Positions 39,936-59,517 of a stretch of DNA of 64,000 nucleotides are shown here, piece by piece. The notes under the pieces were generated by a model. The model was not told the origin of the DNA. It saw only the letters and a list, made by a program, of their open reading frames with translations, and searched no databases. The DNA lies in contig CBFDEM010000004.1 of NCBI GenBank assembly GCA_965603825.1, positions 558,001-622,000 on the forward strand, given 5' to 3'. Source of the DNA: Blepharisma stoltei ATCC 30299 (Eukaryota > Protista > Ciliophora). The position numbers were made by a program, and so were the translations under genes. Every line of letters starts with the position of its first letter. The first letter of the stretch is position 1.

Positions 39936-41780
39936 ATGGAAAAGATTTTAAATGAAATTGATTCTCAGATTAAGCTTGGAAACATCAATATAGCTCTAGA
40001 TAGTCTACAATCCTTAGTCACCAAATATAAAAAGAACCCTGAAATCTTAAAAGAAATATCTCTAAAATTCTACATAACTGGCCAAGAAATCATGAAAAAA
40101 GGTGATTATCGAAATGCAATTGGCCTATGAAAATTCTTATCTCTTTTATTTCCTCCAAGTGGTTTGCAAGACAAAATTTGTGACATAAAAAATGCATTAT
40201 CCTTTTGTTTTAGAGTTCTACGGAAAACCAACGAAGCTATCAAAGAAATTTTATCAGCCATAGAAGCTGCGACCATGCAAACTTCTACCAATTATAAATT
40301 AGCAGCTTTGCATTTAAATGCATGCGCTATTTACAGAGAAGACTTAAAAGACTCAAAATCTGCAATGATTCACGCTGAGCTTGCTTATTTTCATGCAAAA
40401 GAGTCAATTACGCTAGCTCACGTCGATATTTCAGCTGCCAGACATACTCTTGGAGTGACTTATTATAATTATGGGCTTTTAAAAGAAGAAAACAATGAAA
40501 TGTCAACGGCATTGCTGTGATATAGAGAAGGGTTTAAATTTTGCGAAGAATTTGTGAATGATTTGTTTTTGGAGCAAGCTTTTAGAGAAAAGATAAATTT
40601 TTTGGAAGGGAAGTCAAGGCTGTCACCAATCAAATTAATAAATAGAGGGTCTGCGTCTGTAGTCACATCGAGGGCAAAAAGGAAAAAGTCGCCTTATTTA
40701 TATGACGTTGCCAGTATCATAGATAGAAGCAAAATAAGTAGTAGGGCTTTGCAGTCGAGAAAATCGTCATCTTATGGGCCGAGATATAGGCATTTAGATC
40801 CCGGAATGTCAAGGTATGTGATTCCTCCTCATTTTGCTGTTAATAGGTCAGCAGCGCAATCAGAGTATAGCAATAACTCGTCAATCCATCAACATTCCCA
40901 GTACTCACAGCCTGATTCTATGTCTACAATTGAAAGATCAACTGAAGTCTCTGCGAGAACTAGCAAATATAAGATTTCAAAGCCGGCAACAAAAATAAAA
41001 ATCCCTAAAAAAATCAAAGTACAGAGAATTGTTTCGAAGCTTGAAAATAAAATAAGCCCGAAAAATAATTCTGAAGCTGTCAGAAGCAATATCGGGGAAT
41101 CAAAAATTTTTTCTGATGAATTTTATAGACACCAGAAAGCTATAGTAAAAATTCAATCATGGTTTAGAAGCTTAAAATGCCAAGAAATATATGGAAAGCA
41201 AAGAAAATTTTATGATTATATTGCCTTTGGAAAAGCTATTTTAAATGAAGGGTATTATTTTGTAACTGTTTATAGGAGCATTAAGCAGGCACAGTTGAAG
41301 CACCGCTTTATGAGGAAAAAAGTGGAAATTAACGTTGTAGTTGATGCTTTTCCATTAGAAAAAGGATTTCAAAAGCCCTCTGATTTAGATATAAGTTTGA
41401 GTGATATTTGTTTGAGGCTCAGCATTGAATCTGATGAGTTTGAACTAAGAAAAATTCAAGACAGCATAATCGACAAAGTTACGATCAGAGATGGGCATGT
41501 TGATATCAGCAATGAAGAGAAAACTACTGAAAAAATTATATCAAGAATAATTTATATAGGAAAGGCTGCCCTTTCCGATGATGCTGAATATGATTTAGAA
41601 ATGAAATATGTGTTTGGCAAAGAAAAGAAGATTGAAATAATAGCAGTAAACGGGGATTTGATTTATAACTATACAATGCAACTAGATTTGCTACAAGATT
41701 ATGAAACAATTAAAAAAAAAGTGCCATTTATTCTGAGCAGATTATTGATTGAAAATGGATCATTGCAGCTTAAAATATAG
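39936..41780 (+). CDS. TPR + IQ-motif protein
   Basis: Three in-frame ORFs joined by TGA at 40128 and 40518. TPR-like LHLNACAIY and LGVTYYNYG, plus IQ motif AIVKIQSWFRS. Confidence 0.7.
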
Positions 41781-41879
41781 AAAATCAATGTATTTTCATC
41801 AAATTAAATTTAATATATTTAAATATTATTTCTTATAGTTCAATTTTTATATAAAATAATTTAGTTAGCTCCTTTAGAT

Positions 41880-42329
41880 TTATTCATCCCATTTACAGAA
41901 TTCGCATGCGTTAACAACTACTCCTTTGCATCCTCTATCGCCTCTTGGTCCTGTGCATCCTTTAGGTCCTTGTTCTCCGACACATCCAGTAGGACCTTTT
42001 GGTCCTGGGCAGCCAGCAGGTCCACAAGGCCCTTTTGGTCCTTGGCATCCTTCATCGCCTTGGTCTCCTTGTGGTCCTGGGCATCCTTGATCACCTTGTG
42101 GGCCTGGAGGGCCTGGTGGACCTTGTGGGCCAGGAGGGCCTTGAGGGCCAGCAGGACCTTGGCAGCTTTGTGACCCGCCTTTTACTGGTGTAGTATTTTT
42201 AACGAGGGGAGTATTAAGAGCGTTTGCAATTACTGAAGCCTGATTTGTTACTTGCTTACTCTGTAGTAAATTAGGATTAGCAGCCAACGCCGCGACAGCG
42301 AGTACTATTAAAAATGCAGCTCTTACCAT
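41880..42329 (-). CDS. Secreted Cys-rich short collagen-like protein 1 (27 Gly-X-Y), 149 aa
   Basis: ATG at 42329, signal peptide [16 protein letters not shown], 27 uninterrupted triplets GPA...GVV, tail [11 protein letters not shown]. Confidence 0.9.
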
Positions 42330-42364
42330 TATATTATTATATGATATTTTTTTCATTAGTCTCA

Positions 42365-42388
42365 ATATGTTTGAAAATGGTAAAAAAA
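42365..42388 (-). promoter_or_regulatory. Conserved upstream motif, collagen-like gene 1
   Basis: Plus strand ATATGTTTGAAAATGGTAAAAAAA, starting 36 nt upstream of the ATG. Confidence 0.65.
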
Positions 42389-42771
42389 TAGTTTTAATGA
42401 CCCTAAACAGAAATTATATGTTGCATTAGAATCCTATGTAAAAAAAATGATCCGCTCTTAAAAAATTAAAATCAATATCGTTGGTTTTGCCACGTATAGG
42501 AAATTCTTTGAAAAGAATACTTAAAATTAGTCGAATTTAAAGGTAAAAAAAAAATTGAAACAAGCATAGAGTAACTCTCCCAAACGCATTCAATTCTATC
42601 ATAGCTAAAACCTTATTAAAAATATATCAGCAATTTATATTTATATATCCAATTAAGCCATTTTTTATATAAGTAAAGTTTTTTTATTTTATTTCTTGAT
42701 TTTATCCAACCATTAAAATTAAAAATGGCCTTTTTTAACTGATAGGAATATTTTTAATAATTAGTTTAAAC

Positions 42772-43236
42772 TTAGGCATGAATAGCTTCTTCACATGAGC
42801 AATCGTCATCGTCGTATTCTATAATTTTAATGCTGCATCCTTTTGGGCCTGTGCATCCTTTAGGGCCTGGACATCCTTGCGGGCCTGGGCATCCTTGCGG
42901 TCCTTTTGGCCCTTCGCATCCTTGTGGGCCTTGACATCCTTGCGGGCCTTCATCTCCTGGTTCTCCTTGTGGTCCTTTAGGTCCTTTTGGTCCTGGGCAT
43001 CCTTGAGGTCCTTTAGGACCTTGTGGGCCTGGACATCCTTGTGGTCCTTGGCAGCCTTGAGGTCCAGGGCACCCTTGTCTTGTTGTAACGCACTCGTCAA
43101 ATTTTACTGTTTCGGTTTCCACAGCTGGGCAGCCCGATCCTCCAGTTGTTAATAATTTATCTTCCTGTTGTAATAAGCTGGGTTTAACAGCTAAAACAGC
43201 AATAGAAAGTGCTATCAGAATTGCTACTTTTACCAT
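42772..43236 (-). CDS. Secreted Cys-rich short collagen-like protein 2 (27 Gly-X-Y), 154 aa
   Basis: Signal peptide [16 protein letters not shown], 27 triplets GCP...GCS, acidic Cys tail DDDDCSCEE. Confidence 0.9.
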
Positions 43237-43269
43237 TTGATATTATATGCCATTGTTTTTTTAAACTTT

Positions 43270-43292
43270 ATATGCATGCAAATGGTAAAAAA
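43270..43292 (-). promoter_or_regulatory. Conserved upstream motif, collagen-like gene 2
   Basis: Plus strand ATATGCATGCAAATGGTAAAAAA, 34 nt upstream of the ATG. Confidence 0.6.
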
Positions 43293-43570
43293 TAATTAAA
43301 AGTAATTCATATTTTAAAAAATATATATAATTAAACTGAAAAGTTAGAAAATTAGTAGGATTCAGTTGCAAATATTTTTATTAATATCAATTTGATATAT
43401 GATTTTAAAAAATTAATAAAATAAGTGTGACTTTTATATATAAATTTAAGTTATGTATTCTAAATAGGCATCTGTTTTATTTATTCATATTTCAAAAAAT
43501 ACTAGATTTTTTTCTTTTTTAAATAAATTATTAAAAAAATGGCAAATATATAGAAAAATCACTTATGTAA

Positions 43571-44071
43571 TTACCATTGTTTTTGTTCACATTTTATCTC
43601 ATCTCTGTCATCTCTGTCATCATGATCATTGCATGCGCAACTTCTTACAACTTCATCGATTTCCTGGCACCTAATAATAACTCCAGCTGGACCTCTGTCT
43701 CCACAATCTCCTTTTTCCCCTTTGCAGCCTTGCTCTCCACAAAGACCTGCTTCTCCACGTTCTCCTTTGATTCCTGCGCAACCTTGCAGACCTTGGTCTC
43801 CCTTATCTCCTTTTGGACCTTTGTCCCCTTTAGGTCCTTTGCAGCCTTGAGGTCCCTGAGGACCAGGTGGACCTTGTGGTCCTTGGCATCCTTGTTCACC
43901 TCTGTCACCTTTATCTCCTTTTTGATATAAAATTTTTACTTGGCATTCATCTTGTTCGTGTCCACATTGTTGCTGTTGACACTCGTCGCCTTCTAAAAAT
44001 GATCCCTTGAGATTCGGCTTAAATGCAAGGGCGGTTAGGGCGAGAATCATCAGAATTGCAAGTTTGACCAT
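43571..44071 (-). CDS. Secreted Cys-rich short collagen-like protein 3 (27 Gly-X-Y, charge-rich), 166 aa
   Basis: Signal peptide [16 protein letters not shown], 27 triplets GDK...GVI, tail with CAC and DDRDDR. Confidence 0.9.
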
Positions 44072-44103
44072 ATTAATTATCGCATTTCAAAATTTTAGTG
44101 CCC

Positions 44104-44121
44104 ATATGTTTGTAGCATTGG
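44104..44121 (-). promoter_or_regulatory. Partial copy of upstream motif, collagen-like gene 3
   Basis: Plus strand ATATGTTTGTAGCATTGG, 33 nt upstream of the ATG. Only the ATATGTTTG half matches well. Confidence 0.45.
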
Positions 44122-44414
44122 ACAAGATTTAAAGATGGTGGAGAAGACGTTTTCTGATAAATCAGCAATTAAGTATGGCAGTAAAATTCGAAATAAAATA
44201 AGATGGGAGAAGAAAGAGATTTAAATATAGAATATATATATATAAGTACGGATTTATAAGCGATAAGAAGTTAGTGCAATAATGGAAGCGTAGATAAAAA
44301 TATAAGAAAGGTAGGGATTAATCCATGCATATAATTTAATTGAATGAAGAAAATCTTAACTTTGTAGGTTAGGTTTAAACAAAAATCTAGTATTTAAGAA
44401 TTAATAATAATGTA

Positions 44415-46478
44415 TTATCTAATCATCCTATTTAAAATTGCTAAAGAAAGTGGGTTATCATTTTTCATACCTTGCAAACTGTTTTTTAAGTACACAAGAT
44501 TTCTTGAGTGTGACGAGTCTGTATCCTTATCAATTGTTAGTGCTTTTATTATGTTTAGCAAATATTCTATGTCTGCAGCTAGCTGTTTTCCGCCTTGCTG
44601 GCTTAGCTGTTTTATCTGCAAAATTTTTGAAGTGAAAATGCCTAAAAGTGAGTATCCAAGAACAGCAATCCAAAAATGAACATTAAGCCCATGCGGTAAA
44701 TCTTTAGGCGAAGAAACAGAAAACTCAACTATGTAAGCTTTTTCATAATTCATGTCAGGTGAACTGGGTGCCAATTGCTGCAAAAGCCCTAGCAAATGCT
44801 CACCAACAGCTATAATGCTAGGCGATGGGGAAGCTGAAAACTGGGCTACTGGCTCTACTCAAGTTGGAAGAGCATGATAACTATAAAGCTTACCAGCAAT
44901 TGGTAGGTATAAAACTCTAAGAGCTAAATCTTTACTTTCGTCAAGCATTGACTCTAATATTTTTAAAATCCCATTAAAAAACCTCCCCCCTTCTCTTAAA
45001 GTTCTCACAAAATGCTGGCATTTTTTGGCTAAATTCGGATTATTTATTTGTATTGCATCCTGAAGTTCTTTTTGCTCTGTAAATTCTGTTGTGAAATATG
45101 AAGTTGTCATACAGTTTAAAAATTCCTGCCTTATTTTCCCATCAATTCTTTCAACTTCTACATAAAAATCCAACACTTCTTCATAAAACTTTATTGTTGC
45201 TTGGACATCATTTCAGTTTAATTGAAATTGAGTCGAAGGACCTGAAGTAAAGTCAAGATTTGGGAGAGTTTTTATATTATTTTGCAAAACAAAGCTGCTA
45301 ATTTCATTTTTAAATTTTTCTATTTCACTGATCATTGCTTGTTCTATAATCGGACACCATTCTGAAGCCGATGTACCAAGTGTAATTTTCAAACACCTTT
45401 CCCATGAATTTTTGATTTCGTTTAATAAATACTGACTCGATTTTTTCCAATTATCAATGGGATTATCTCTGAAAACTCGAGGAATGTTGGAATTATCAAA
45501 AAGTTTCTTTTCTAGCTGAGTCAGCTTAGTAGAAATTGCAATGATATGCAAAGATATTGGATTTATTGAATTTGTTGCATTTTTCACATAAGAAATCAAT
45601 GATAATAAAGATGTAAAAGTTGGAATAAGTGAATCTATTGGTTGACCTAAAAATAGATCACTAATTCTTTCCTTGCTTAAAATTTGTTCAAATAGTGTTT
45701 CAAGATATGGTGATGGGTCTGGGAAAATAGTTTGAAATAAACTTCCTTCATTTCTGATTCTTTGTAAGACCTCGGAAATCATCTCGTCAAATGTATCAGA
45801 AGTGCTTTTTTGGTAAATTTTTAAGCGATTTCCTACCAAAATTTCTGCAAATTCCATACTATTTTCTAGCTCATTGTAAATTCTATGCAATTTCTTTAGC
45901 TCTTCTCGAGCTTCTTTTTTGCTCATTTCTTCTGTTTTTTTTCTTAGCTTTTCTTTAATTACTCTCATAAAACTTTCAATTTTTTCAACAAATTTTTCGA
46001 ATTGTGGCAATCCTGTCATAAATTTAAGAGATTTCCTCATAGATGCAAACTGTTCTGTAACATTTTCAATATCTTCATTAGAATCTAATAATGCATGCAT
46101 CCTCTCAACTTTGCTTTCAAAAGTTTCTATTTCTTGCAAAGCATTTTTGCAGTCAGAAATCCTTTCTGTAAGAAGATGATCGCGCTTGAGTTCTTCTAGC
46201 TCAGGAGTTTTTAATGATTTGAAAGCGTTTTCGATTCTTTCAGTTTCTTTTATGAGATCTATGGTATCGATAGAGAGAGCTGAGACTTGATCTTTATAAG
46301 ATCCTATATCTTTGAATAAAGATGATGATTTAAATTCAAGGGTAGCTTCGAGATCTTGCTCAAGCAGTTGAAGTTTGATACTTAGAGAGCTGAGTTTTTG
46401 TTCAGGCTGTGAATCGTTTTCTAAAATTGCGTTTAGCCATGATACAGGATCTCAGTTGTCTTGAAATATATCATCCAT
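44415..46478 (-). CDS. COG7: Conserved oligomeric Golgi complex subunit 7-like
   Basis: One frame through TGA at 46452, 45213 and 44859. N-terminus DPVSWLNA...LSSLSIKLQL; C-terminal FSASPSPSIIAVGEHLL and KQLAADIEYLLNIIKAL. Confidence 0.75.
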
Positions 46479-46617
46479 TTTATATGAAAATGATTATTAT
46501 TAGGTATAAATGATATTGCCAAGTAATATTATCTTTAGATGGATACCAAATGTAATTAATTTTTCCAATAGAAATGCCAAGATACGAAAACTTAATTAAT
46601 AATTCGCATCAGATTGC

Positions 46618-47431
46618 TTAATCATTAAATTCGGAAATTTTTTCAAAATTCTTCTTTTCCTTGTTAAATCTAAAACAAAAATAGGACAATCTATCCTTAT
46701 TGAGGATATTTAAACATAAATATGTTAATACTTGAAAATCAATTGAATATATTTTATATCCTTTTGCAAGATTTGCACTTCCAATTGTATTTCATATATA
46801 TGGATTATTAAAACCGCTTTCAAAAACTCTCCTTTCTGCCTCAAAAATGTAAATTCTTGAACTTTCATAAATTAAAATTTTGAACATAAATTTTGAAACT
46901 GTCAAAATTTTGCTATAGCTGTTCAGATCTTCATCATATTCATATACTTTCGAATGGCGAAATCCTGAAAATATAATCTTTTTATTATAAGAAATTGATG
47001 ATATTTCATGTGATGCTTCAGGGATTGGAGATATTGTGATTCATCGACTACTTTTCATTTCAAACTTAGCTGCAAAATTAGAATACTCAAAAATACATGC
47101 TCCTCCAAAAGCATAGATATTACCATTATGGAAAACAATTCCAGGTTTAGAGCAAGGATTACCATGGCAAAACTGGATATAAGCGCCGCTTGCTGGATTT
47201 ATGATGTATGTAGTGCCAAATTCTTGATATGAATTCCCAAAGCAAAATAAAGAGGAGTCAGGGAGTGATATTATAGATGTTCCAGAATCAAGAGGCTCTG
47301 GAGTTTCTATAAAAATTTTATCTTTCTTGTTTGAATTTATATCATAGCTTTTCAATGTTGTAATATCATAACTTCGCCCTATTGAATAGAGCTTAATTTC
47401 TTCGTAAAAAGTTACTATTTTCTTCTGTCAT
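46618..47431 (-). CDS. Kelch-like beta-propeller protein
   Basis: SLFCFGN, NIYAFGG, SSR-W(TGA 47041)-ITISPIP; open to TAA at 46618-46620. The start at 47431 requires a 16-nt intron. Confidence 0.65.
47400..47415 (-). other. Candidate 16-nt intron
   Basis: GTAACTTTTTACGAAG fits GTA-N6-TA-N3-AG. Removal puts ATG 47431 in frame. Confidence 0.5.
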
Positions 47432-47894
47432 CTTTATGAATGCTATTTAATAAATCTTGAAATGTCTTCAGAAATGTTATCTGCAGTTGTGCAAGTTATA
47501 ATATAACTTAATATAATTAAAATAAAATTTTTGTATTCAATTTTGCCAAAGTTTCACATAATTTCTTCTGATGCTAATCAAAGACGTATTATCTTGTTGA
47601 AATTTTATTCTATCACATATAACTTAAAAATTGACTACAAAAGGATGAAAAAGATGCTTAATTTAATGCTTTGATAGTAAATAATTTTTATCATCAATTT
47701 ATTTTCTGCATAGCATAAAAAATTAAAGACATCTCACTAATTATTATTTATAAGCTCTTCCGTCAATAATCTAAGCTCTACGCTAGCTATTCTACTCATA
47801 AAATTATAGATATCTTTTAAATCACCAGTGTATCTTCACTTGACGAAAAGTATCTAACCAGTCTGAAAGTATCCTAGAGTCTATAAAGAATATA

Positions 47895-48788
47895 ATGCAA
47901 CTTGAGCAAAGCATCGACTGCACGCTCCAGGAGTGGACAGATCTTAAGCTAAATAACCTTAGGATCGACCGCAAGCAAAGGATAACTGAAGACATTTTCT
48001 CATCTCTTAAGCTTGGAGAGGCTGAGTCAATAACAGGCACTTGTCTTGCCAAGCATAGCATTACAGCCGAGCTCCGTTCTCGTATGATTGACTGGATGAT
48101 TGAAGTGCTTGCTCAGTACCGTACTTCTGGGCAAACCTTTTTCCTTGCAGTAAAAATTATGGATAAATACTTCCAAAAATGCACTGAATCTTTACCAGCA
48201 ACTAAGTTACATCTAGTCGGTGTAACTTCAATGTTCATTGCATCAAAATTTGAAGATATTTACTCCTTAAGGCTTAAAATCGTATACGAGAAGATCGCTC
48301 ATAAAAGACTCTCTGAAAAGTCAATCAGAAAAATGGAACAAAAAATCCTGAGAACTCTCAAATTTGACTTAGCGATCCCCAATTGTGCAGATTTTTTAGG
48401 ATATTTATGTGAAATAGTGAATCCATCATTAGCAATCAGAAGAACAGCAGAGTTAATTTTGGTTCTTCTGCAGATTTATTATAATACTGGACTTTTGCCT
48501 TCCCAAGAAGCAACTGCAGCCTTAATAATTGCAGCGAATTCTTTGAGACAAGAAAGGCTGGTGCCAAAAATTTTAGACGCGTCAGAATGCTCAGAATTCG
48601 ATATGGCTTTTGTAGTTGATAGAATTTTAAGAGGGATTTATGATTTCCCTAGAAATTTAGGGAGTTTTAAATCCGCGATGAAATTTTTGGGGTTCAGTTT
48701 GATACTAAGAACTCCAGGGCCTCTATTCGTGTTTGAAGATTTAGACGTCCAGGCTGACCAAGAGCAGCTGCTAACAATATTTAATTAA
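47895..48788 (+). CDS. Cyclin with A/B-type cyclin box
   Basis: LRSRMIDWMIEV, TFFLAVKIMDKY, LVGVTSMFIASKFEDIY and MEQKILRTLKFDL. Confidence 0.9.
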   Translation: MQLEQSIDCTLQEWTDLKLNNLRIDRKQRITEDIFSSLKLGEAESITGTCLAKHSITAELRSRMIDWMIEVLAQYRTSGQTFFLAVKIMDKYFQKCTESLPATKLHLVGVTSMFIASKFEDIYSLRLKIVYEKIAHKRLSEKSIRKMEQKILRTLKFDLAIPNCADFLGYLCEIVNPSLAIRRTAELILVLLQIYYNTGLLPSQEATAALIIAANSLRQERLVPKILDASECSEFDMAFVVDRILRGIYDFPRNLGSFKSAMKFLGFSLILRTPGPLFVFEDLDVQADQEQLLTIFN

Positions 48789-48911
48789 TGTAAAAGTAAT
48801 TAATTTGCATAAATTTATTGGGATTTGACTAATTTGAGTAACTATATTAAATTAATATCTTTTACATACTACTCCATCCTATTACTTCCCACGTCCATTG
48901 CTAAATATTCT

Positions 48912-50345
48912 TTACCTTTTGTCGGCTAGCTCTGGATATTTTTTCATTAATTTTGAATAAATTTTCTTCCCAAATTGGCTTCTTTTCAAGTCATCCATAA
49001 GAGGCTTTATATCCCTCATCATTTTTGTAAAAAGCAGAGGCGCAGCTAGGCTTAAAGCTCGCTGTACGACTAAATAAATTTTACCATAATTAGCGAATTG
49101 ATCTGGAATCATTTTTGCCAAATTCTTTGGATTCCCAATTTCTTGTATCATAGCTTGTTGCACTTCACTTTGGTTTTGCTGCAAACATTTTTCTATTACA
49201 TTTGATGAAAATTTCTGAGTTGATAGTTTCTGCATATAAGGGATGAAGATAAATGCCAATCTTGCATTTATATTTGGTGAATTCAAGTCAAGCACATACT
49301 GTACCACGTAATTTCCAAAGGCATCTTGAACTAAAACGACTGCATTTTCGACGATTTTGTCAACAAGAAGATCTAGCTGTCTTGGAGATGCTGCGTCAAT
49401 GCATCTTTGTAAAACGCAGCAGCCATGCCTATGAGTGCCGATATCAATAATATTTAAACTGGTGGCTTCATATATGAAATTAGTATTGGCTTGCCCTAGG
49501 GTATGTAAGCACTTTTGTATGACATGATTTCCATTGATATCTTTAATAAGGGTAATCACGTTATTTTTCAGAGCTTCGACTATGGTTTGTATATGATTCG
49601 GATACTTAGCCACAATATCGAGCAGTTTTTGGACTGCTCTTGTCCCATGAGGACTTAAAGAAATTTGAGTAATTTCATTATAAATGACACTAATAATTGA
49701 CCTTAATATTCCTTCATCACATACCTCCATCAATTTTTGTACTAAATAATTTCCAAAAGGATCTACCATTAGTATTGGCAGCTGCAGCATTATTTGATCA
49801 TAAATTGTCTGAATTGTAAATGGGTTTTGCTCTTCTAGTTTCTTCTGTAGCATTCTGCATCCTATTTGATCTTTAGCCATATCTAAAGCATTTGTGTATA
49901 TATGCTGCGCATTAAACTGTGTAAACCCATAGAACTCTGAGCCACCATAGCTGCTTGGTTGGAAATCTTGGACATTTGGCTGCGAATATTCAGTAAATCC
50001 GCTTGGTGGGTCTTCTTCCTTTATGCATGTATCCACTACATGATTTACCAATACACTTGTAGATCTAGAACGATCATCAGAATCAGAAACTTGGGACATT
50101 TTCCTTGATTGTGTCGTATGCAGAGGCTCATTAAGAGGCGGCGGAATGTTCATTTTTGCCTTATACCTCTCATAAAATTCTTCGTACATCTGATCATTAC
50201 GAATATCTGAGAATGCGATGGTATAGTCTTGCCCCATAGGAAAGGCGAATATCATATTTGAGTCTAGCATAGGAGGAGCGGAAATGGAGCGAGAAGGGTT
50301 GGAATCTCCGGGCACAAGAAACTGATGATAATAAGGAGATGTCAT
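48912..50345 (-). CDS. Pumilio/PUF RNA-binding protein
   Basis: Eight PUF repeats: GCRMLQ, GNYLVQ, GTRAVQ, GNHVIQ, GCCVLQ, GNYVVQ, SSNVIE, and ANYVVQ after intron removal. Confidence 0.92.
   Translation of the reverse strand: MTSPYYHQFLVPGDSNPSRSISAPPMLDSNMIFAFPMGQDYTIAFSDIRNDQMYEEFYERYKAKMNIPPPLNEPLHTTQSRKMSQVSDSDDRSRSTSVLVNHVVDTCIKEEDPPSGFTEYSQPNVQDFQPSSYGGSEFYGFTQFNAQHIYTNALDMAKDQIGCRMLQKKLEEQNPFTIQTIYDQIMLQLPILMVDPFGNYLVQKLMEVCDEGILRSIISVIYNEITQISLSPHGTRAVQKLLDIVAKYPNHIQTIVEALKNNVITLIKDINGNHVIQKCLHTLGQANTNFIYEATSLNIIDIGTHRHGCCVLQRCIDAASPRQLDLLVDKIVENAVVLVQDAFGNYVVQYVLDLNSPNINARLAFIFIPYMQKLSTQKFSSNVIEKCLQQNQSEVQQAMIQEIGNPKNLAKMIPDQFANYGKIYLVVQRALSLAAPLLFTKMMRDIKPLMDDLKRSQFGKKIYSKLMKKYPELADKR
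49070..49084 (-). other. 15-nt in-frame intron
   Basis: GTAAAATTTATTTAG. Removal converts NY-GKIYL-VVQ to the canonical PUF NYVVQ. Confidence 0.9.
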
Positions 50346-50361
50346 ACTTATTAATCCAAAA

Positions 50362-51198
50362 ATGAAAAATCTAAGCTATGGAAGAAATGAAGTTTTGCAT
50401 TTGGAGCCAAAAAGACCTTATCGATATAATGATAGATTAAAGAGGAAAGAGTCTAGAGAAAGGACGGTCCCAAAGGAAGTAAAAATGTGTGTGGAGTCAT
50501 TTGAGGACACTAATACGGAGAGCACTCATACAAGGCAGCCAACTATGATTATCAATAATCTCAGCCAAAGCCAGAGGTTTATATCAGCACTCAGCAATGT
50601 TCCGAGTGATGGGCTGCTAAAATTGGAAACTTCGTTGGACTTCTGGGATTATGGAGTCGGGAGTTTAGATTTAAACTTTGAATACGATTCTGATGAATTT
50701 CTGAGTGATATTTCACGCTTTGAAGATGCTGAAAATACCCAAGAGCCTTTAAAGTCATTTACTCAAGACAGTACAAAAAATTCTATAAAACAGTCATTAG
50801 TAGTAGAAAGCAAAAGCTACATAACACATAAAACGGGCAAAAAGACAAAAATTCTCGGAAAATTAAAAGAATCTACCAATGCAAAACCTACCTTAAGCAC
50901 TCATGAAAATGAGCCCGATTCATATCGAGAAAAAAATTATTATTATGGAAAACAATCTGGATCCCCTCAGAGTGATTTTATAAACTATATAACTTCCAAA
51001 GCATATTGTCCTAAATGTCAATGTGAAGTCTCAACTACTGTAAAATTTAAATTTCCCTCAATGACATTGTAATTTTTATTTAGCTGGCAAAAATTGTGCT
51101 GCAGAACTTGCTATGGAAGTGGTGATTTCAAAGAAATTCTTTATCACTGTAAAAAATGTAAGACTCTCATAACAAAAATTAAAAGAAGCAAGAAATAG
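50362..51198 (+). CDS. LITAF-like zinc-ribbon protein (start codon uncertain)
   Basis: CPKCQCEVSTTV, then after a 15-nt intron FWQKLCC...EILYHCKKC, ending at TAG 51196-51198. Confidence 0.7.
51069..51083 (+). other. 15-nt intron
   Basis: GTAATTTTTATTTAG contains the apparent TAA stop. Removal supplies the second CxxC. Confidence 0.88.
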
Positions 51199-51712
51199 AT
51201 AATTATATTTGCATTGCGTTAGATTAATAAAGGGGTATTAATTGTTGAATAATTATTTCTGAGTGTACATCTTTAGTAAACTCATTTATGTTTAATCAAA
51301 TTTTTTGAGCTTTTCATGAAAAATACTATTTTCGCATAAGAAATTTCTGATGCTAAAACGTCTTAGTGCCTAATATCTAAGAAAATGAGCCGATAATTGC
51401 TGGATATACAAATAATGAGTTTTAAAATTTTGTTGAAAGGTAGCCCCATAAATAATATGCTAAAAATAAAACAACTCAATTATTAGTTGCATAAATTCCT
51501 AAGCTTGTGATAGCATAATCAGCATCCAAGCCCAGAGATCTAAAGCTTTAAAGTTGATAATTTTTCATTAAATAAGCACCCATAATTATAGATACAATTC
51601 AGAAAATTCCTTATAATTAAAAAATTGATATCTATTGCTATTTATAGCACCTAAATTAATAAATTAACCCATCAAAACTATTCATCTACGATTTTTCTAT
51701 TAATTATAATAT

Positions 51713-53805
51713 ATGTTTAAACGTGAATATCTGGAAGATTCAGATAGCTTTTCAGACCCATCAGATCTGGAAAATCCTCCATATGATTAGCAGCACCCTG
51801 GATCATTTCAGCCAGCTCACCTTGAAAGAGATTTTGAAGATGAAGAAAAGCCCAAATATCAAAACCTCCAGCCTGTTGAAGAAAACTACTTTAATACGAA
51901 TCCAGCACCTCCTACTTATTACCAACCACAACCAGGCGAGTATGCAACAGGCGGATACGTCAGAGAAGGCATGGGTGGGTTAAAAATAGGTATCCAACCT
52001 GGAAGAAAAGAAAATAGCGAAAAAGTTGGATTTATTAATTTAGAAGACCCTGAAAAACAAGAGCCACGTCCTGATACAAGCTCAGCAAGGCCAGGGAGCA
52101 GCAATGCTCAAATGCGTGCTCAGATGCTTAAAATGCAAAGAAGTAAATTAATGAGCAGAGGAAGTACTATAACTGCACAAATACAGTCTAGCGATATATT
52201 CATTCCGGGGGTCAGCCCAATGGTTATACAAGGGCGAGAGCAAAATTCTGGGATTCAGTCTTATTTATTCTCGAATCAAATTTTAAAAGAAACAGATTTA
52301 AGCGGTAATAGAGAACTAAGAGGGTTCACTGCACCCAAAAACTTTGTATATGAACCTGGTCCTATAAAGTCTAACCAACCTGATAACTTGCCAGGGCCTA
52401 TTAAGCCTGAAAGAACTGTATTTAGAGCTGAGGAAGAACTTGAAGAAGTAAAGCTTGATGAAGGATCAAGGCATACACCAAGCAAAACACTCCAAGGAAT
52501 CCATAAGCAGCTTGAAGACCAAAAAAATCATCCAGTTCCTTCACCACAATATGAAAGACCTGTCCAGCCTCAGTCTGAAAGCCGATCTTCAACTGCAGCT
52601 GAAAATTTCATTCCTCCTGAGCCGAAATATATCCCTCTTGAATCTAAACCCACAAGCCAGCCTGAACAGCATATCAAACCGCCAATAGCAGAGGCATATC
52701 AACCAAACATTTCTCCTCAAGAAAAAATACCTGCTAGGCCAAATGATCCTCAAAGACAGCAATTTTTTGATGAAAAGCAACATTATTCAAGAGAAGATAG
52801 GCCTACTCCTAATGGACAAGATGAAAGGCGACCGCCAGAAAATAGAATTCCTCCTCCAGATCCCCGAAAACAACAAAATGGCAAACCAGAGCCTCCAGCT
52901 CCAACACATCCTCTTAACAGACCAGATTCTGCAGATGCTAAAAGGGAGCAAAATATTCCTCGACAGCCGTCTGTAAATATTCGTGAAGTCCTAGCCCAAG
53001 AAATGACTGATATGAAGAAATTCCTGACAAGTCCAATCACTCGAGGCATAATGCTGCAATGCAATATCAGACGAGAAAAGCCAGGATTTGGCAGATTATA
53101 CGCAAAATATTATTTTCATATCACAGATGGCATGACATTTCTGCTGGCTGGTAAAAAGAGAGGAGGAAACCGAACCTCAAACTATATGATTACAAGTAAC
53201 CAAAGAGAATTTTCAGTAAAATCTCCTGCATACTCAGGCAAAGTCCGGTCAAATTTCCTTGGAACGGAATTCCATATCTATGACACTGGCATGAATCCAA
53301 AACATAGAGGTGCTAATGCTATGAATGCAAGAGAAGAATTAGCAATTATTTTATATGTAAGCATCATTTAGCAATCAAATATCCTGGGTTCAAAAGGACC
53401 AAGAAAAATGAGAGTTTTGATACCAGCTGTAAATAATGCAGGAGACCATTGTGTCTGAAAGCCAATGAACGTAATATTTACTTAGAAAGAAGACGGGATG
53501 CTTCAGCAATATAATGCGGGAAATACATCAGGGATGCTTTGCTTCTTTAATAAGCCTCCGAAGTGGAATGAGCGTAAATTATAAGCAGATGTACAAGCTT
53601 TTGTGCTAAATTTCAATGGCAGAGTTGATATAGCCAGTGTAAAAAATTTCCAATTGATTGATGATAGAGATGAAAATAAAATTTATATGCAGTTTGGGAG
53701 GTGGGAGATCAAAATTTTAATTTAGACTTCCAGTGGCCATTTTCACCTCTCCAAGCATTTGGAATTGCACTTTCAAGTTTTGATTATAAGTTTGCATGTG
53801 AGTAA
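51713..53805 (+). CDS. Tubby-domain protein with three introns, an in-frame TAG and an apparent 1-nt deletion
   Basis: [51 protein letters not shown] and [20 protein letters not shown]. Confidence 0.85.
53357..53371 (+). other. 15-nt intron
   Basis: GTAAGCATCATTTAG. Removal gives [14 protein letters not shown]. Confidence 0.9.
53471..53485 (+). other. 15-nt intron
   Basis: GTAATATTTACTTAG contains an in-frame TAG. Confidence 0.88.
53574..53588 (+). other. 15-nt intron
   Basis: GTAAATTATAAGCAG contains an in-frame TAA. Removal gives [12 protein letters not shown]. Confidence 0.88.
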
Positions 53806-54133
53806 TATTAATTTATTTGGAAATGGCAGCCTTGAGAAAAATCTTAATAATTATCATTTTATTTTATTTTTATCATTAGATATTTTGAAATGATGTAAAA
53901 TCTAGTAATTTAATTATAATGAAATTCATCAGAACGATTGGAGAATAGGTGAATATCTGCAGCATAAGAAAACTATACAATTAGCATTTTTTTAATACAA
54001 ATTTGTGCCTTTTAAAAGAAGGAAATTCTATTATTTCTAAGATCTTCTGCTTGAAAATAGTTATTTATTTCTTGTGCTACAAAAAATTGCAAAGCAATAT
54101 TATTAAATAATTTATAAGAAAACTCTTATAGCT

Positions 54134-54796
54134 TTACTCCCTTGCTTTAAGCTCTATTGTAGTTGAATCATTATTTTTACGGTCTTCATCCCATGCAATT
54201 TTAAGATTACTCCTATCAAAGGAGTAGTTTGCCCTTGTATCTACTAGACTAGGAAGAACATGCTTTTCTGTTATTCTATCATAAAGAAACAGTGTCATTC
54301 CACATGTATAAACTAATGAAAATACGCTTGTCCCCACTGATATTATTAGCACATAATTTCAGTCTCCTAAGCTACCTCCATTATATACTTGCAAAATTAT
54401 TTGAGGGATACTTTTAATAAAACCTTGGATTACACCTGTAATTTTTGTCATAAAATCAATTAATTCTCTTTCTTCTCTTTTAGATTTGTTGAGATAAATA
54501 TAAACTGCAAAAATAATCAGCGTTAAACCAGTTTGTTCGCCAAAGGCAAAAAATAAGCTCAAACCTGCTCTAAAGCACAAAAGTCTTCTTTTATTCCTTA
54601 TAAGATCATAAAATGTTGTTAAAATGCATAAAGAGACGATAAGGATTCCTGGGGCGACCAAAAATAATATAGACGCGTAATATAAAGTTCTACTTGCAAA
54701 GTGCTGAGTGAGAATGTAATATATGTCTGTTAATAGGTCTATGATATTTGCAACACCTCCTAATAAGAATAATAAGGTATCAGCTTTCAGGCCCAT
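54134..54796 (-). CDS. Multi-pass membrane protein, XK-related-like
   Basis: Joined through TGA at 54359. DLLTDIYY and KSIPQIILQVYN resemble XK-related motifs; several TM segments. Confidence 0.55.
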
Positions 54797-55723
54797 TATT
54801 ATAAGCTAATTATTTCTTTTCATTTGAATCTTTTTAAATTTATTAAGACAGTTCTATTTTGGCTTTATATCGAGAAAATGATTTTTCTTATTAAAAAAGG
54901 ACATTAGAGTTTGATTAGAATATTTTTTAAAATTATTAAGATTGTTAATTTTCTGAGTGAGTATATTTTGGCTATTTCTAGGCAAATAGACTAGCCATCT
55001 TGATTTATTTAATATTAGCACATCCAAACTTATTAAAAAACAATTCAATTAATTTAAAAAATTGATTAGATAGGTATTAAATAGATTTGAATTGCTTAAT
55101 TATTTAGTGAGAAATTATAGTATAGAATTAGCTGTTAAAATAAATTATAGATAAGCTAAAATTTTAAGTAATTTAGGGCTTAGCATATAAAGGAAAATCT
55201 TTGGCAATATAAATATGTTATATATGCGTCCTTGGCTGTTGCTTAAATTTAATAGTTCATATGCAGACATGGTAATATAAGATAGAATATGTCAATGATC
55301 AAATAATACTCGTAGAGATTGTGACAGGAGTATATCTTTCCTTTAGAAGAATAAACTCTGAAGTATCTATTTATATTGCCTTATTAAAAGTTTATTTAAG
55401 GATAGATAAAATTCCTTGTATGAATAGTAACTTTTTGGTAATCAAAATAGAATAATAAGAAATGGATAATATCAATCCCTAGACTATCAGCAGACTCTGC
55501 TAGATTCATAATGAGATAGGCCCTAAATTCTGAGCAAATAAGAAATAAGTCAGGAAGGAAGGAAGGATAGAATCTGATAAATACAAAATAAGATAGGTCT
55601 TAAACTTTGAGAGCAGGTAAAATATGGTATAAATGGCGATTTTCTATCCTTGTTATTTATTTAGAGAAAACTCATAATTTATGTTTTTGAAATTTTATAA
55701 TATATTCTTAAAGATTTGCGTTT

Positions 55724-56233
55724 CTATTTGCTATGAATCTTGGTTGAAACAAAGTTTACTTCACTTGCTCCACATTCATCATTGCAATCTGGTGTTGGAA
55801 CTGACACGCATTTCACGCTTACACCTCTAGGACCTTCGTCTCCTTGGTCACCCTGGCATCCTGCGCAACCTTGAGGGCCTTGACATCCGACTTCTCCATC
55901 TGGTCCTTTTGGTCCGTCTTCTCCTTTTGGTCCTCTTGGGCCTTTACAACCTTTAAGTCCACATGGTCCGCATGGTCCTGGACATCCTTGTGGTCCACAT
56001 GGTCCGCATGGACCTGGTGGACCTTGTGGTCCTGTTGGTCCTTGTGGTCCTACTGGTCCAGCACAAACATCATCGATTTTTTCGTCATATTCAAAGCATT
56101 CTTCTGCTTTACAACCTCCACATCCATCATCGACTCCTTGAATTAACCCAGTATTTTTTACTTGCTTAAATAAAGTTGGTTTGACTGCCGATACAGCAAT
56201 AAAGAGTGCGATAAGAATTGCAATCCTAGCCAT
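55724..56233 (-). CDS. Secreted Cys-rich short collagen-like protein 4 (27 Gly-X-Y), 169 aa
   Basis: Signal peptide [20 protein letters not shown]...ECF N-terminal region, 27 triplets GPV...GVS. Confidence 0.9.
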
Positions 56234-56266
56234 TATGTTATATTATACCAGTATTTCATCGTGCTA

Positions 56267-56290
56267 ATATGTTTATAAATGGTGAAAAAA
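56267..56290 (-). promoter_or_regulatory. Conserved upstream motif, collagen-like gene 4
   Basis: Plus strand ATATGTTTATAAATGGTGAAAAAA, 34 nt upstream of the ATG. Confidence 0.65.
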
Positions 56291-56725
56291 AATATAAATA
56301 GTCCTATCAGAATTATGTAGCATTAAAATGGATTATTTTAGCAATGAAAATTATTAAAATATTTCATTAGAGCTATTTTTTGATTTCAATTTATTAGAAC
56401 TTGTAGTGACTTTCTTCATTATAAAGTTTTTATACTTGTTTAATGCAATCTATATTAGTTTGCCAAGAGTCATAAATAGTTCAATAATTCGAAAAATAAC
56501 CTATAAACGATAAAAAATTTTAAATAAGCAATTTCGAATCAATATAAATAGGCCTAAATAATTAAATTTGCTTTTAGGTTAGAGCATAATCATAATTTCA
56601 AAGAAATTCATAATTTATAAATGCTAAGCAAATCATATGTTTTTCTTTAAAATTTATCTTTCGTGAGTTTATTTTAGTTTGATGGTTATAGTGCAATGTA
56701 GCCGAATAATTATAGTTAATTAAAT

Positions 56726-57214
56726 TTAATTTGCTCCGCATTCATTATTGCAATCTGGTGTTGGAACTGACACGCATTTCACGCTTACACCTCTAGGACC
56801 TTCGTCTCCTTGGTCACCCTGGCATCCTGCACAACCTTGAGGGCCTTGACATCCGACTTCTCCATCTGGTCCTTTTGGTCCGTCTTCTCCTTTTGGTCCT
56901 CTTGGGCCTTTACAACCTTTAAGTCCACATGGTCCGCATGGTCCTGGACATCCTTGTGGTCCACATGGTCCGCATGGGCCTGGTGGACCTTGTGGTCCTG
57001 TTGGTCCTTGTGGTCCTACTGGTCCAGCACAAACATCATCGATTTCTTCGTCAAATTCAAAGCATTCTTCTGCTTTACAATCGCCACATTGTCCTTCACC
57101 AACTCCTTGAATTAGCCCAGTATTTTTAACTTTGCCATCTTCTTGCTTAAATAAGCTTGGTTTGACTGCCGATACAGCAATGAAGAATATGACAAGAATT
57201 GCAATTTTGACCAT
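56726..57214 (-). CDS. Secreted Cys-rich short collagen-like protein 5, tandem paralog of protein 4, 162 aa
   Basis: Collagen domain is identical in amino-acid sequence to gene 4, at a DNA offset of 966 bp. Confidence 0.9.
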
Positions 57215-57246
57215 TATTTATATCATACCAGCATTTCACTGGGCTC

Positions 57247-57270
57247 ATATGTTTGCAAATGGTGAAAAAA
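57247..57270 (-). promoter_or_regulatory. Conserved upstream motif, collagen-like gene 5
   Basis: Plus strand ATATGTTTGCAAATGGTGAAAAAA, 33 nt upstream of the ATG. Confidence 0.65.
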
Positions 57271-58279
57271 ATGTCTTTAAATAATCCTATCAGAAAGATT
57301 TTTTTATATTTAAATAAATTTAATGGTAGTTAATTACCTTTGTCTTTCATCAATATAAATAATTTTATTTCGAACTGCCTCATATTTACAGCTAACAACT
57401 TTATTATTAAAAATGTGTATTTATTAGCATTTAGATCCGTGAAAACTCTAAAGCAGGGTCCATGAATTGTTTAAATGCGCTAAATAAATAAACAAAATAT
57501 AAGAGACACTTCATTGAATGAACCAAACTTAAGAGCTCATGAAATAATTGAAATTTATAAAATTAACATATTCTATATTAGACTAATTTGATACCTAAAA
57601 CTTAAACTCTGTAATTTGATGTTATGAATTTTATTGCATAAGCTTATGATTATTTCAGTACTTGCACACTGATGCGATCTGGTGATTTATATGCCAAAGG
57701 CTCTGCGAAGTATGCAGTATTATGCTAAAGAATATAAATGCGTTTGATTGTTGATTTTGTTATTTTGCAGCAGTTCAGAGAAGGGGGTATGAAAAAATAT
57801 GTTACCTTTAAAAACTTATTAACGATCAGAGATCTTAATTATTTTTTCATATCCAACTAATACGCTAACCTTAATGTAGTACATGCATAAGGCTAATAAC
57901 TCTAGAATAAGTAAGATGAGTGCATCAAATCACACAATTGAAAGCCATGCAGTGTGCCTCAATTCGTTAGGCTGATTGTCATGCATTTCATATTGCATCA
58001 GACATTACACATGATTAAAGCCATATGCATATAGCATCACAGGCTATAGTTATGACACTCAATATCTTTCATAATTAGGCCATGTAAATACTTACTGAAG
58101 TGTCTTAGAAGATGCACAATTCGTGGAGCCAATGACTTCAAAGAATGTCGAACTCTTTAATAAAAGTATTAAATGCAATATTATATATATCTTTTACTTC
58201 CAGCTCATCCGCAATTTACTTTTTGCTTACAAAAACTCTTTATAAAATGTTTTGAAATGATATTTTATTGATGAAATTA

Positions 58280-59218
58280 TTATTCAATTAAATTAGATTT
58301 AGGACCTTCTTGATTTTGAGTGGATTTCGGCTCATAATTATCCCCAGTCCGTCCCGGTCTTGCAGCAGGATCTGTGGATAATGTTTTTCTTTTGCTATCA
58401 TAGCTTCTTTCTTCATCAATTTCTCTTCTTGAATCCTTTTTATCCATTTTCTTATTCGCATAAAACTGGGTCTTTGATGAATTTTTCTGCCTTCTTTTAA
58501 TAGTTTTTTCTTTATGCTCTTCTACATCTTTTGTAGCATTATGAAGCACTCGTTGAACGCTATCAATCACAGGGTGTCCTACTGGCAAATTTTTCTTTGC
58601 AAAATCCACAGCTTTTTGATACATAGTTATAGCTTCGTTCGTTCTTTTTAAATATTCGAGTTCTACTGCCATATTATGATAAGCAATAGCTAAAACAGGT
58701 GCATGCTCTTCAAAGCCTTGATTTGCTTGAGTGGTCGTTATGAAAAGATCTTGCAAAAGTATGACAGCTTGCATAGCATGCTCTAAGGCTTTTTCATGCT
58801 TGTCAATCTGTGAAAGAGAGGCACACAAGTTTAAATGAGTATTCGGTGTGTCATTATCGAGCGCTAGAGCTTTTTTTAAATACGTTAAAGCTACCCTTGC
58901 TTTTCCAGTTTTCCTATAATAGCAAGCGAGGTTATTGTAAGTTATCGCTCTAGCATGATCATCAGTTTCACATAAAAGTTCAGCTCTTTTCAATAGATCA
59001 AAAGCTAAATCTGAATCGTCTCGCTGAAGATAATGGGTTGCTAGAATATTGCAAAGTTCGCATAATTTGTGATAACTTTTTTTTACTTCTTGGCTGTCTT
59101 CTCCAAACCTCACTTTTCGAATATTTAGGCCTCGTTCAACAATATCAAGGGCATCAACGTATTTTCCTTCAGCTTTGAATTTCTCAGAAAGCCTGTCTAA
59201 TTCATCTAAATCTTCCAT
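58280..59218 (-). CDS. TPR-repeat protein
   Basis: AITYNNLACYYRKTGK, THLNLCASLSQ and AIAYHNMAVELEYL. Confidence 0.85.
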   Translation of the reverse strand: MEDLDELDRLSEKFKAEGKYVDALDIVERGLNIRKVRFGEDSQEVKKSYHKLCELCNILATHYLQRDDSDLAFDLLKRAELLCETDDHARAITYNNLACYYRKTGKARVALTYLKKALALDNDTPNTHLNLCASLSQIDKHEKALEHAMQAVILLQDLFITTTQANQGFEEHAPVLAIAYHNMAVELEYLKRTNEAITMYQKAVDFAKKNLPVGHPVIDSVQRVLHNATKDVEEHKEKTIKRRQKNSSKTQFYANKKMDKKDSRREIDEERSYDSKRKTLSTDPAARPGRTGDNYEPKSTQNQEGPKSNLIE

Positions 59219-59517
59219 TATGAGTTAATAATAAATAGCTAAGTAGGTAAAAGTTAGAGCATTAGAAAAAGTTGAGGTAGTGGCATAGAAGAAATAAATG
59301 ATGCATTTCTTTAAAATAAAAGAAAAAATGCATTTGAATTTAAATGAAATCAGGAAATTTTCGGCTTAAAATTGTATTTTTTGAAAATATTTTAAAGCCA
59401 AGCTCTAACTTCAAAAAGAAATCATTTATTTTAAAATTGATGATTCTCTTCTTTATAAAACAAGCTAAAACTATTTAATTTACCTTATTTTTTGAATATG
59501 ATTACTTAAATCTCTTG

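Follow-up and report, generated by a model that had tools for sequence, protein, structure and literature searches.

A position-fixed 23-bp element upstream of collagen-like genes in Blepharisma stoltei, a likely proximal promoter site for the chains of a predicted heterotrimer

We analysed a 64,000-nucleotide stretch of the genome of the ciliate Blepharisma stoltei ATCC 30299 (contig CBFDEM010000004.1, positions 558,001 to 622,000; hereafter the window, with coordinates counted from its first letter), in which a 23-base-pair (bp) sequence element precedes members of a family of five collagen-like genes. The DNA is gene-dense with a GC content of 30–40%, and reading TGA as tryptophan, the code stated for Blepharisma in bioRxiv 2021.12.14.471607, opens frames of 4,391 and 3,588 codons, with TAA and TAG remaining stops. 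The five genes lie on the minus strand between positions 41880 and 57214, with ATGs at 42329, 43236, 44071, 56233 and 57214, and form two clusters 12 kb apart, a tandem group of genes 1–3 and the pair of genes 4 and 5. Their products have 149–169 amino acids, a hydrophobic N-terminus, 10–16 cysteines and the collagen domain PF01391, which was the sole domain found in Pfam; no C1q, NC1 or C-propeptide domain was identified there.

41880 to 42329, minus strand: gene 1, 149 amino acids, 27 Gly-X-Y triplets at residues 58–138, 10 cysteines, PF01391; hydrophobic N-terminus a predicted signal peptide, product the predicted trailing chain of a heterotrimer
42772 to 43236, minus strand: gene 2, 154 amino acids, 27 Gly-X-Y triplets at residues 55–135, 14 cysteines, PF01391; predicted middle chain of the heterotrimer
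43571 to 44071, minus strand: gene 3, 166 amino acids, 27 Gly-X-Y triplets at residues 52–132, charge-rich, PF01391
55724 to 56233, minus strand: gene 4, 169 amino acids, 27 Gly-X-Y triplets at residues 59–139, 16 cysteines, PF01391; predicted leading chain of the heterotrimer
56726 to 57214, minus strand: gene 5, 162 amino acids, duplicate of gene 4

All five proteins had exactly 27 unbroken Gly-X-Y triplets, and the longest run in each of 235 database collagen-repeat proteins ranged from 13 to 49. Genes 4 and 5 encode identical helices, have 95% nucleotide identity, differ at 4 of 78 four-fold sites and lose their upstream similarity about 80 nucleotides (nt) from the start, by which comparison they are a recent duplicate pair. 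For this reason they were counted once, such that the four copies of the element described below represent three independent lineages. Both also have a short upstream reading frame whose TAA overlaps the main ATG (TAATG).

The element had been proposed, in a sequence-only reading of this DNA, as a motif shared at a fixed distance from the start codons, and the positions and spacings given there proved exact. The degenerate 23-mer had exact plus-strand matches at 42365, 43270, 56267 and 57247, at distances of 36, 34, 34 and 33 nt from the A of the minus-strand ATGs of genes 1, 2, 4 and 5, respectively, and it spans 33–58 bp upstream of these four genes. On the sense strand the order is a T-tract, ACCATTT, four variable bases and CATAT, and the distance between the two CAT cores is 10 bp.

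42365 to 42387, minus strand: complete element of gene 1 (exact match, weight matrix and mismatch scan)
43270 to 43292, minus strand: complete element of gene 2 (exact match), forming, together with the start region of gene 2, a perfect 12-bp inverted repeat
56267 to 56289, minus strand: complete element of gene 4 (exact match, weight matrix and mismatch scan)
57247 to 57269, minus strand: complete element of gene 5 (exact match, weight matrix and mismatch scan)
44104 to 44139, minus strand: split element of gene 3, CATAT half at -37 to -33 and ACCAT half at -68 to -64

When up to three mismatches were allowed there were still just four matches in the 64 kb, against 0.10 expected, and none of 100 shuffles reached four, although this rarity test is circular. 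Its non-circular counterpart was a set of leave-out weight matrices, in which each held-out site ranked directly after the training sites (rank 2–4 of 127,952 positions); the elements scored 27–32 bits and the next-best sequence in the window 13 bits. The gene 3 site ranked from 25 to 2009 in the same matrices. Upstream of gene 3 only a half-match had been described, 33 nt from the ATG at 44071. That CATAT half, at 44104, was confirmed, but the ACCAT half (plus strand ATGGT, 44135–44139) is present as well, displaced 19 nt upstream, with the CAT cores 29 bp apart rather than the 10 bp of the complete elements.

As a control set we used the 28 other long open reading frames (ORFs) of the window, 25 of which had a methionine in the first 45 codons and were testable. 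None of the 25 carried both halves at the spacing of the element, in agreement with the earlier impression that the motif does not precede other genes; CCAT alone was found in two of them and CATAT alone in none. A motif-like sequence on the minus strand at 55622–55636, about 90 nt downstream of gene 4, has CCATTT and CATAT at a 9-bp instead of a 10-bp spacing and has no ATG at the usual distance.

Several other identities for the element were considered. A divergent ORF beginning at the plus-strand ATG inside the motif was rejected, being unconserved (4–23 codons), and the element had no resemblance to those Blepharisma transposon end repeats that are quoted in PMC9942856. For positions 41000–59000, Rfam covariance models gave no matches at E-values up to 1. 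Parts of the element may partially resemble YY1 (CCAT), forkhead (RYAAAYA) and GATA sites, and we name no factor.

The conservation of the element was sharply bounded. Among genes 1, 2 and 4, 18 of its 23 columns are identical, compared to 8 of 47 and 4 of 33 in the two flanks. By contrast, of 333 four-fold comparisons in the in-register helix 194 show a difference (58%, over nine pairs with genes 4 and 5 both counted), where 57% is expected at saturation, and in free alignments the four lineages differ at 51–76% of such sites. The regions from -131 to -300 and the first 60 nt downstream aligned no better than shuffles in all 10 pairs, third positions of the signal-peptide codons match at just 6–10 of 17, and X/Y identity between lineages is 15–23 of 54. 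The claim that the motif had been conserved while the coding sequences diverged is borne out by these numbers. Since the element is a sharp island of identity amid saturated silent sites, the alignments mark it as a footprint of selection.

The genes carrying the complete element are also related through the predicted assembly of their products. In the charge-pair test, basic Y residues facing acidic X residues of the next chain were counted, the offset running from the trailing to the leading chain. We scored the 27 combinations of chains 1, 2 and 4, the helix of chain 5 being the same as that of chain 4. The top three of the 27, all free of clashes, were the cyclic registers of the order 4>2>1, which had net counts of 8, 7 and 6 axial pairs, and all others had at most 4 (shuffle p=0.001 for the best ABC combination, p=0.019 for the best of 27). 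In this order 10 of the 11 acidic residues are partnered (p=0.0013), and only 3 of 729 rotations reached 8 axial pairs. Offsets 0 and +1 both gave p=0.001; among six decoy offsets, -1 was weak (p=0.038) and the other five had p>0.4. The inter-chain charge pairs favour one ABC order over homotrimers and AAB trimers. The Lys-Gly-Asp/Glu rule and its direction are those given in PMC7824840, and the axial and lateral terms those in PMC12086834.

Based on these counts, chains 4/5, 2 and 1 are predicted to form an ABC heterotrimer in one cyclic order. The three trios that included chain 3 were non-significant at the axial offset (p=0.12–0.50). As a homotrimer, chain 3 had 25 axial pairs compared to 15 when shuffled, with none of 1,000 shuffles as high, and it is predicted to form a homotrimer. 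Complex prediction for chains 5, 2 and 1 (score 0.32, mark 0.34) gave no verdict and was used neither way. The genes with the complete element are exactly those of the predicted heterotrimer, and the gene with the split element is that of the predicted homotrimer. Because the motif-bearing genes encode the three chain types of a predicted mixed collagen rod, a shared on-switch is likely.

We consider it probable that the 23-bp sequence acts as a proximal promoter site, jointly switching on chains 4/5, 2 and 1 of the predicted heterotrimer. The position and conservation of the element and its specificity within the window were observed, as were the length matching and charge complementarity of the chains. 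A promoter element for co-expression was also what the sequence-only reading had suggested, and it remains the best reading, with the predicted heterotrimer chains as an additional reason; that account had overlooked the complementarity of the element to the start region and the duplication of genes 4 and 5. All five genes, but only 6 of the 25 controls, have an additional ATG in the 30 nt before the start (Fisher p=0.009, four lineages counted), a pattern consistent with a very short leader in which the element is not included. The median 5' untranslated region (UTR) of Paramecium is 19 nt (PMC5485702), and Blepharisma UTRs have been called tiny (bioRxiv 2021.12.14.471607). We infer that transcription starts approximately 10–30 nt before the ATG, such that the element would be untranscribed DNA.

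In the mechanism we propose, a sequence-specific factor, perhaps a dimer, would read the two CAT cores one helical turn (10 bp) apart and, bound just upstream of the short leader, would induce genes 1, 2 and 4/5 together. Under common control the three chains would be made in matched amounts, would assemble in register in the order 4/5>2>1 and would be cross-linked by their cysteines. The disulfide-linked chains may then be secreted into an outer structure, for which a cyst wall, a capsule and an extrusome are candidates. Blepharisma forms walled cysts (PMC8891572), and the cyst wall is one candidate destination among several. Gene 3, as a predicted homotrimer, would need no dosage matching, and its element is split.

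Contigs of four sequencing runs guessed to be RNA, all from one study, covered coding parts of the family: gene 1 in all four runs, gene 3 in two, a gene 2-like sequence in two, and genes 4/5 or a close variant in two. No contig of these runs lay over any element or start region (40500–47000 and 56075–59300), and such contigs can show neither start sites nor expression levels, so this absence has no bearing on either. Contigs of run X2 at 42953–43158, 42018–42125 and 56979–57017 had many differences from the window (13 in 146 letters) and loose ends that continued as collagen-like coding sequence, which suggests at least one further family member outside the window. Over 199 letters, a gene 5-like contig in runs X1 and X2 differed at 8 positions and had a 3-base gap.

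A number of observations weigh against a promoter site dedicated to a heterotrimer. The pairing of half of the element with the start-codon region surpasses that of 97–99.8% of background 32-mers, the value varying with the measure, and a DNA site leaves this pairing unexplained. The copies are paralogous, three lineages of one origin, and do not amount to motif discovery in unrelated genes, and a second conserved block (listed below) is absent from the upstream region of gene 2. The starts of the control ORFs are first-methionine calls. Chain 4/5 has two genes, the other chains have one each in the window, and further paralogues seem to exist, so that dosage is not simply 1:1:1. As to the charge test, the trio 1/2/4 was chosen, as one of four trios, after the scores were known, although the 4>2>1 result survives correction for four trios. 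The trio 1/2/3 reached p=0.04 at offset 0, and the homotrimer of chain 3 was weaker by a second measure (p=0.036). In addition, the charge count leaves out proline content, cysteine links and terminal domains, and the heterotrimer prediction concerns one natural sequence set.

The paralogy raises the question of whether the shared sequence has any function, as duplication or short gene-conversion tracts could have left it behind as a neutral relic. The family consists of tandem paralogues, genes 4 and 5, with their 95% identity, have upstream sequence in common to about -80, and weak similarity persists at -1 to -30 and in the second block. However, the silent sites of genes 1, 2, 3 and 4/5 have reached saturation, only 6–10 of 17 third positions match in the signal-peptide codons, identity falls sharply on both flanks of the element, and conversion of a 23-bp island lacking flanking homology would be unlikely; we regard a relic as improbable. 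Another alternative is a general promoter element, either a core promoter or a nucleosome-excluding sequence of strongly inducible or secreted-protein genes, having no tie to the heterotrimer. Core elements typically keep a fixed distance and orientation, both halves persist in gene 3, albeit split, along with the second block, and about 30 genes were examined in all. Against such generality, none of the 25 other ORFs of the window carries the element, and its complete form tracks the three charge-matched chains. A general element seems to us improbable.

The complementarity to the start region leads to a different explanation, namely that the element is transcribed and acts as RNA. Read as its reverse complement, the first half of the element matches the start region of the gene that carries it, and its U-tract and ACCAUU would pair with the AAUGG(U)-purine run at the start codon, keeping the message untranslated, with the upstream AUGs helping, until a signal or a shorter transcript freed it. 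In folds of -62 to +20 the AUG was paired with a probability of 0.94–1.00 in genes 1, 2, 4 and 5, whereas values over 0.9 were found in 3 of the 25 controls. The 11-bp helix has 41 of 44 cells paired, and in gene 2 the element and start region make the perfect 12-bp inverted repeat. Of 2,345 background 32-mers, 0.2% reached 38 paired cells with 8 G-C pairs, 3.1% reached 38 cells regardless of G-C pairs and 2.3% reached a duplex of -8 kcal/mol. Yet across the four sequences there were no compensatory changes and three broken cells, 94 of 500 shuffles paired equally well, and the lone changed position of the element (T to C in genes 4/5) fails to bring pairing back. The z-scores of folding were -1.2, -2.4, -0.9, +0.9 and -0.1, below -2 in one of five, and in gene 4 the duplex did not surpass those formed with 11 of 25 unrelated starts. 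The start-codon hairpin is not formed in gene 3, gives no role to the CATAT half and would require a leader of at least 60 nt. The idea is also post hoc and draws on four copies of one origin. Together, these points make the hairpin an unlikely explanation, and the promoter site is the reading that we prefer.

Further conserved sequences accompany the element.

42402 to 42432, minus strand: second block of gene 1, weaker, common to genes 1, 3 and 4
44161 to 44187, minus strand: second block of gene 3, p=0.003 against gene 4 and p=0.006 against gene 1
56303 to 56329, minus strand: second block of gene 4, ending in CTGATAGG on the sense strand
57286 to 57293, minus strand: remnant of the second block of gene 5, CTGATAGG
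44082 to 44089, 56251 to 56258 and 57231 to 57238, minus strand: TGAAAT(G/A)C box (sequence) between the element and the ATG

In genes 1, 3 and 4 the second block sits between about -70 and -115. It had been described as common to genes 1 and 4 (42402 and 56303) and is present there as written; the match between these two is weak (p=0.049), and gene 3 has the block too. A third CTGATAGG lies in the opposite orientation at 42739–42746, just downstream of gene 2. All three copies in the window adjoin collagen-like genes, and we estimate that about 1.3 would be expected by chance. In genes 3, 4 and 5 the TGAAAT box, a candidate for the start-site region, is located between -18 and -28; gene 1 has ATGAAA at -27. 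Upstream of gene 5, about 1 kb (57300–58280) has no clear gene and gave no match in Rfam; the density of TGCA is raised at 57500–58000 (9 per 500 bp, against a window mean of 2.5). Elsewhere, the 3,588-codon frame (19052–29818, minus strand) has long low-complexity repeats and a strong AT skew.

No orthologous locus was found in protein and DNA searches. Word-index searches returned generic collagen repeats alone among the best 120 of 1,840 and of 1,087 matches. The N-terminal 64 residues as a query matched only themselves, and an N-terminal profile run against 1.84 billion proteins had two matches, one of them the protein of the window itself and the other an unrelated repeat protein. In a metagenome scan that kept 80 of 225 loci, there was no ciliate-like orthologue in the 14 most cysteine-rich loci or in locus L002. 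With respect to a viral origin, there were no relatives among 11 pattern matches. The ESM Atlas gave only generic collagen or leads below 0.9. The element itself was carried by none of 152 metagenome loci, and 72 viral matches to the motif plus an ATG reduced to 14 distinct strings, none near a collagen repeat. Cysteine-rich Gly-X-Y repeats, lacking the N-terminus of genes 1–5, occur in a metagenome contig of 35% GC (L037:1198-2457) and in a Clostridia protein (P0122), a likeness that is probably convergent. The exact proteins of genes 4 and 5 are present in a collection of 15 billion proteins and those of genes 1–3 are absent from it, the gene 2 protein being present in the ESM Atlas; genes 1–3 may be missing from, or differently called in, public annotation. 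In literature searches that left subscription journals largely outside their scope, we found neither a description of such collagen-like proteins in Blepharisma or other ciliates nor this motif in work on Blepharisma promoters, and collagen is not mentioned in the main texts of PMC9371601 (Stentor regeneration) and PMC8891572 (cyst review).

If the promoter reading is correct, the element would be among the few promoter elements defined in heterotrich ciliates, and its use as a genome search tag should reveal other parts of the structure built by the collagen-like proteins. The link to the proteins matters more than the element alone: in a unicellular eukaryote, the charges of three short chains seem to encode a single register, and the genes of these chains share an upstream element. 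To our knowledge, heterotrimeric collagens are an animal feature that relies on terminal chain-selection domains; C1q and type IX collagen of animals are ABC heterotrimers. It is a tentative suggestion, which we hold with some doubt, that this ciliate builds a register-specific ABC heterotrimer from three genes through a charge code in the helix, matched by a dedicated promoter element that might double as an AUG-blocking hairpin, and that the element tags, genome-wide, other parts of an undescribed secreted collagen structure. If true, the system would be a compact natural test of collagen partner choice and of the co-ordination of subunit dosage in ciliates.

Known systems offer partial parallels on both the protein and the DNA side. 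Cnidarian minicollagens (PMC2289959), such as those of Hydra, are likewise small, contain cysteines and have a short central Gly-X-Y run, and have been proposed to form disulfide-linked networks. They have 14–16 triplets, flanking polyproline and conserved terminal cysteine patterns, whereas the five chains have 27 triplets, no polyproline and 6–10 cysteines inside the helix. Since the chains lack these defining features, we rejected an identity with minicollagens. A further likeness is to designed charge-pair ABC peptides (PMC7824840) and to the ABC collagens of animals, in which three length-matched chains take their register from directional pairs of Lys with Asp/Glu, as predicted here. Unlike those ABC collagens, the present chains come from a unicellular eukaryote, lack C1q, NC1 and C-propeptide domains, and have an assembly predicted from sequence.

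It had been fairly stated that RNA polymerase II promoter elements are poorly known in ciliates (PMC8899921), though close precedents exist (PMC10711438, PMC1808422), and AT-rich upstream elements in spirotrichs (PMC8899921) and core motifs in Tetrahymena (PMC11754650) have been described. The co-PGM motif of Paramecium tetraurelia (PMC10711438) is an 18-bp, position-biased and reporter-tested sequence of 98 of 180 mostly unrelated genes. Like the element, it is a ciliate, AT-rich and non-palindromic sequence of similar size; it is concentrated 50–60 bp upstream of the start site of co-regulated genes. Unlike co-PGM, which occurs in either orientation, the element has one orientation, belongs to one paralogue family in a heterotrich-type genome and is a predicted promoter site. 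MTCM1 of the Tetrahymena metallothionein genes (PMC1808422) is similarly a family-specific upstream motif that was kept among paralogues when its surroundings were not; MTCM1 is nearly absent elsewhere, and the element is absent from the 25 other testable ORFs of the window. However, MTCM1 is AP-1-like and multi-copy, occurs within 500 bp in both orientations and is conserved in two species, and the element is single-copy, position-fixed and from one species. By-eye comparison of the available consensus sequences excluded identity with either, as neither resembles the ACCATTT/CATAT core. By itself, the element is a further example of the family-specific or position-biased upstream motifs of ciliates; it is the combination with a predicted ABC collagen that is new.

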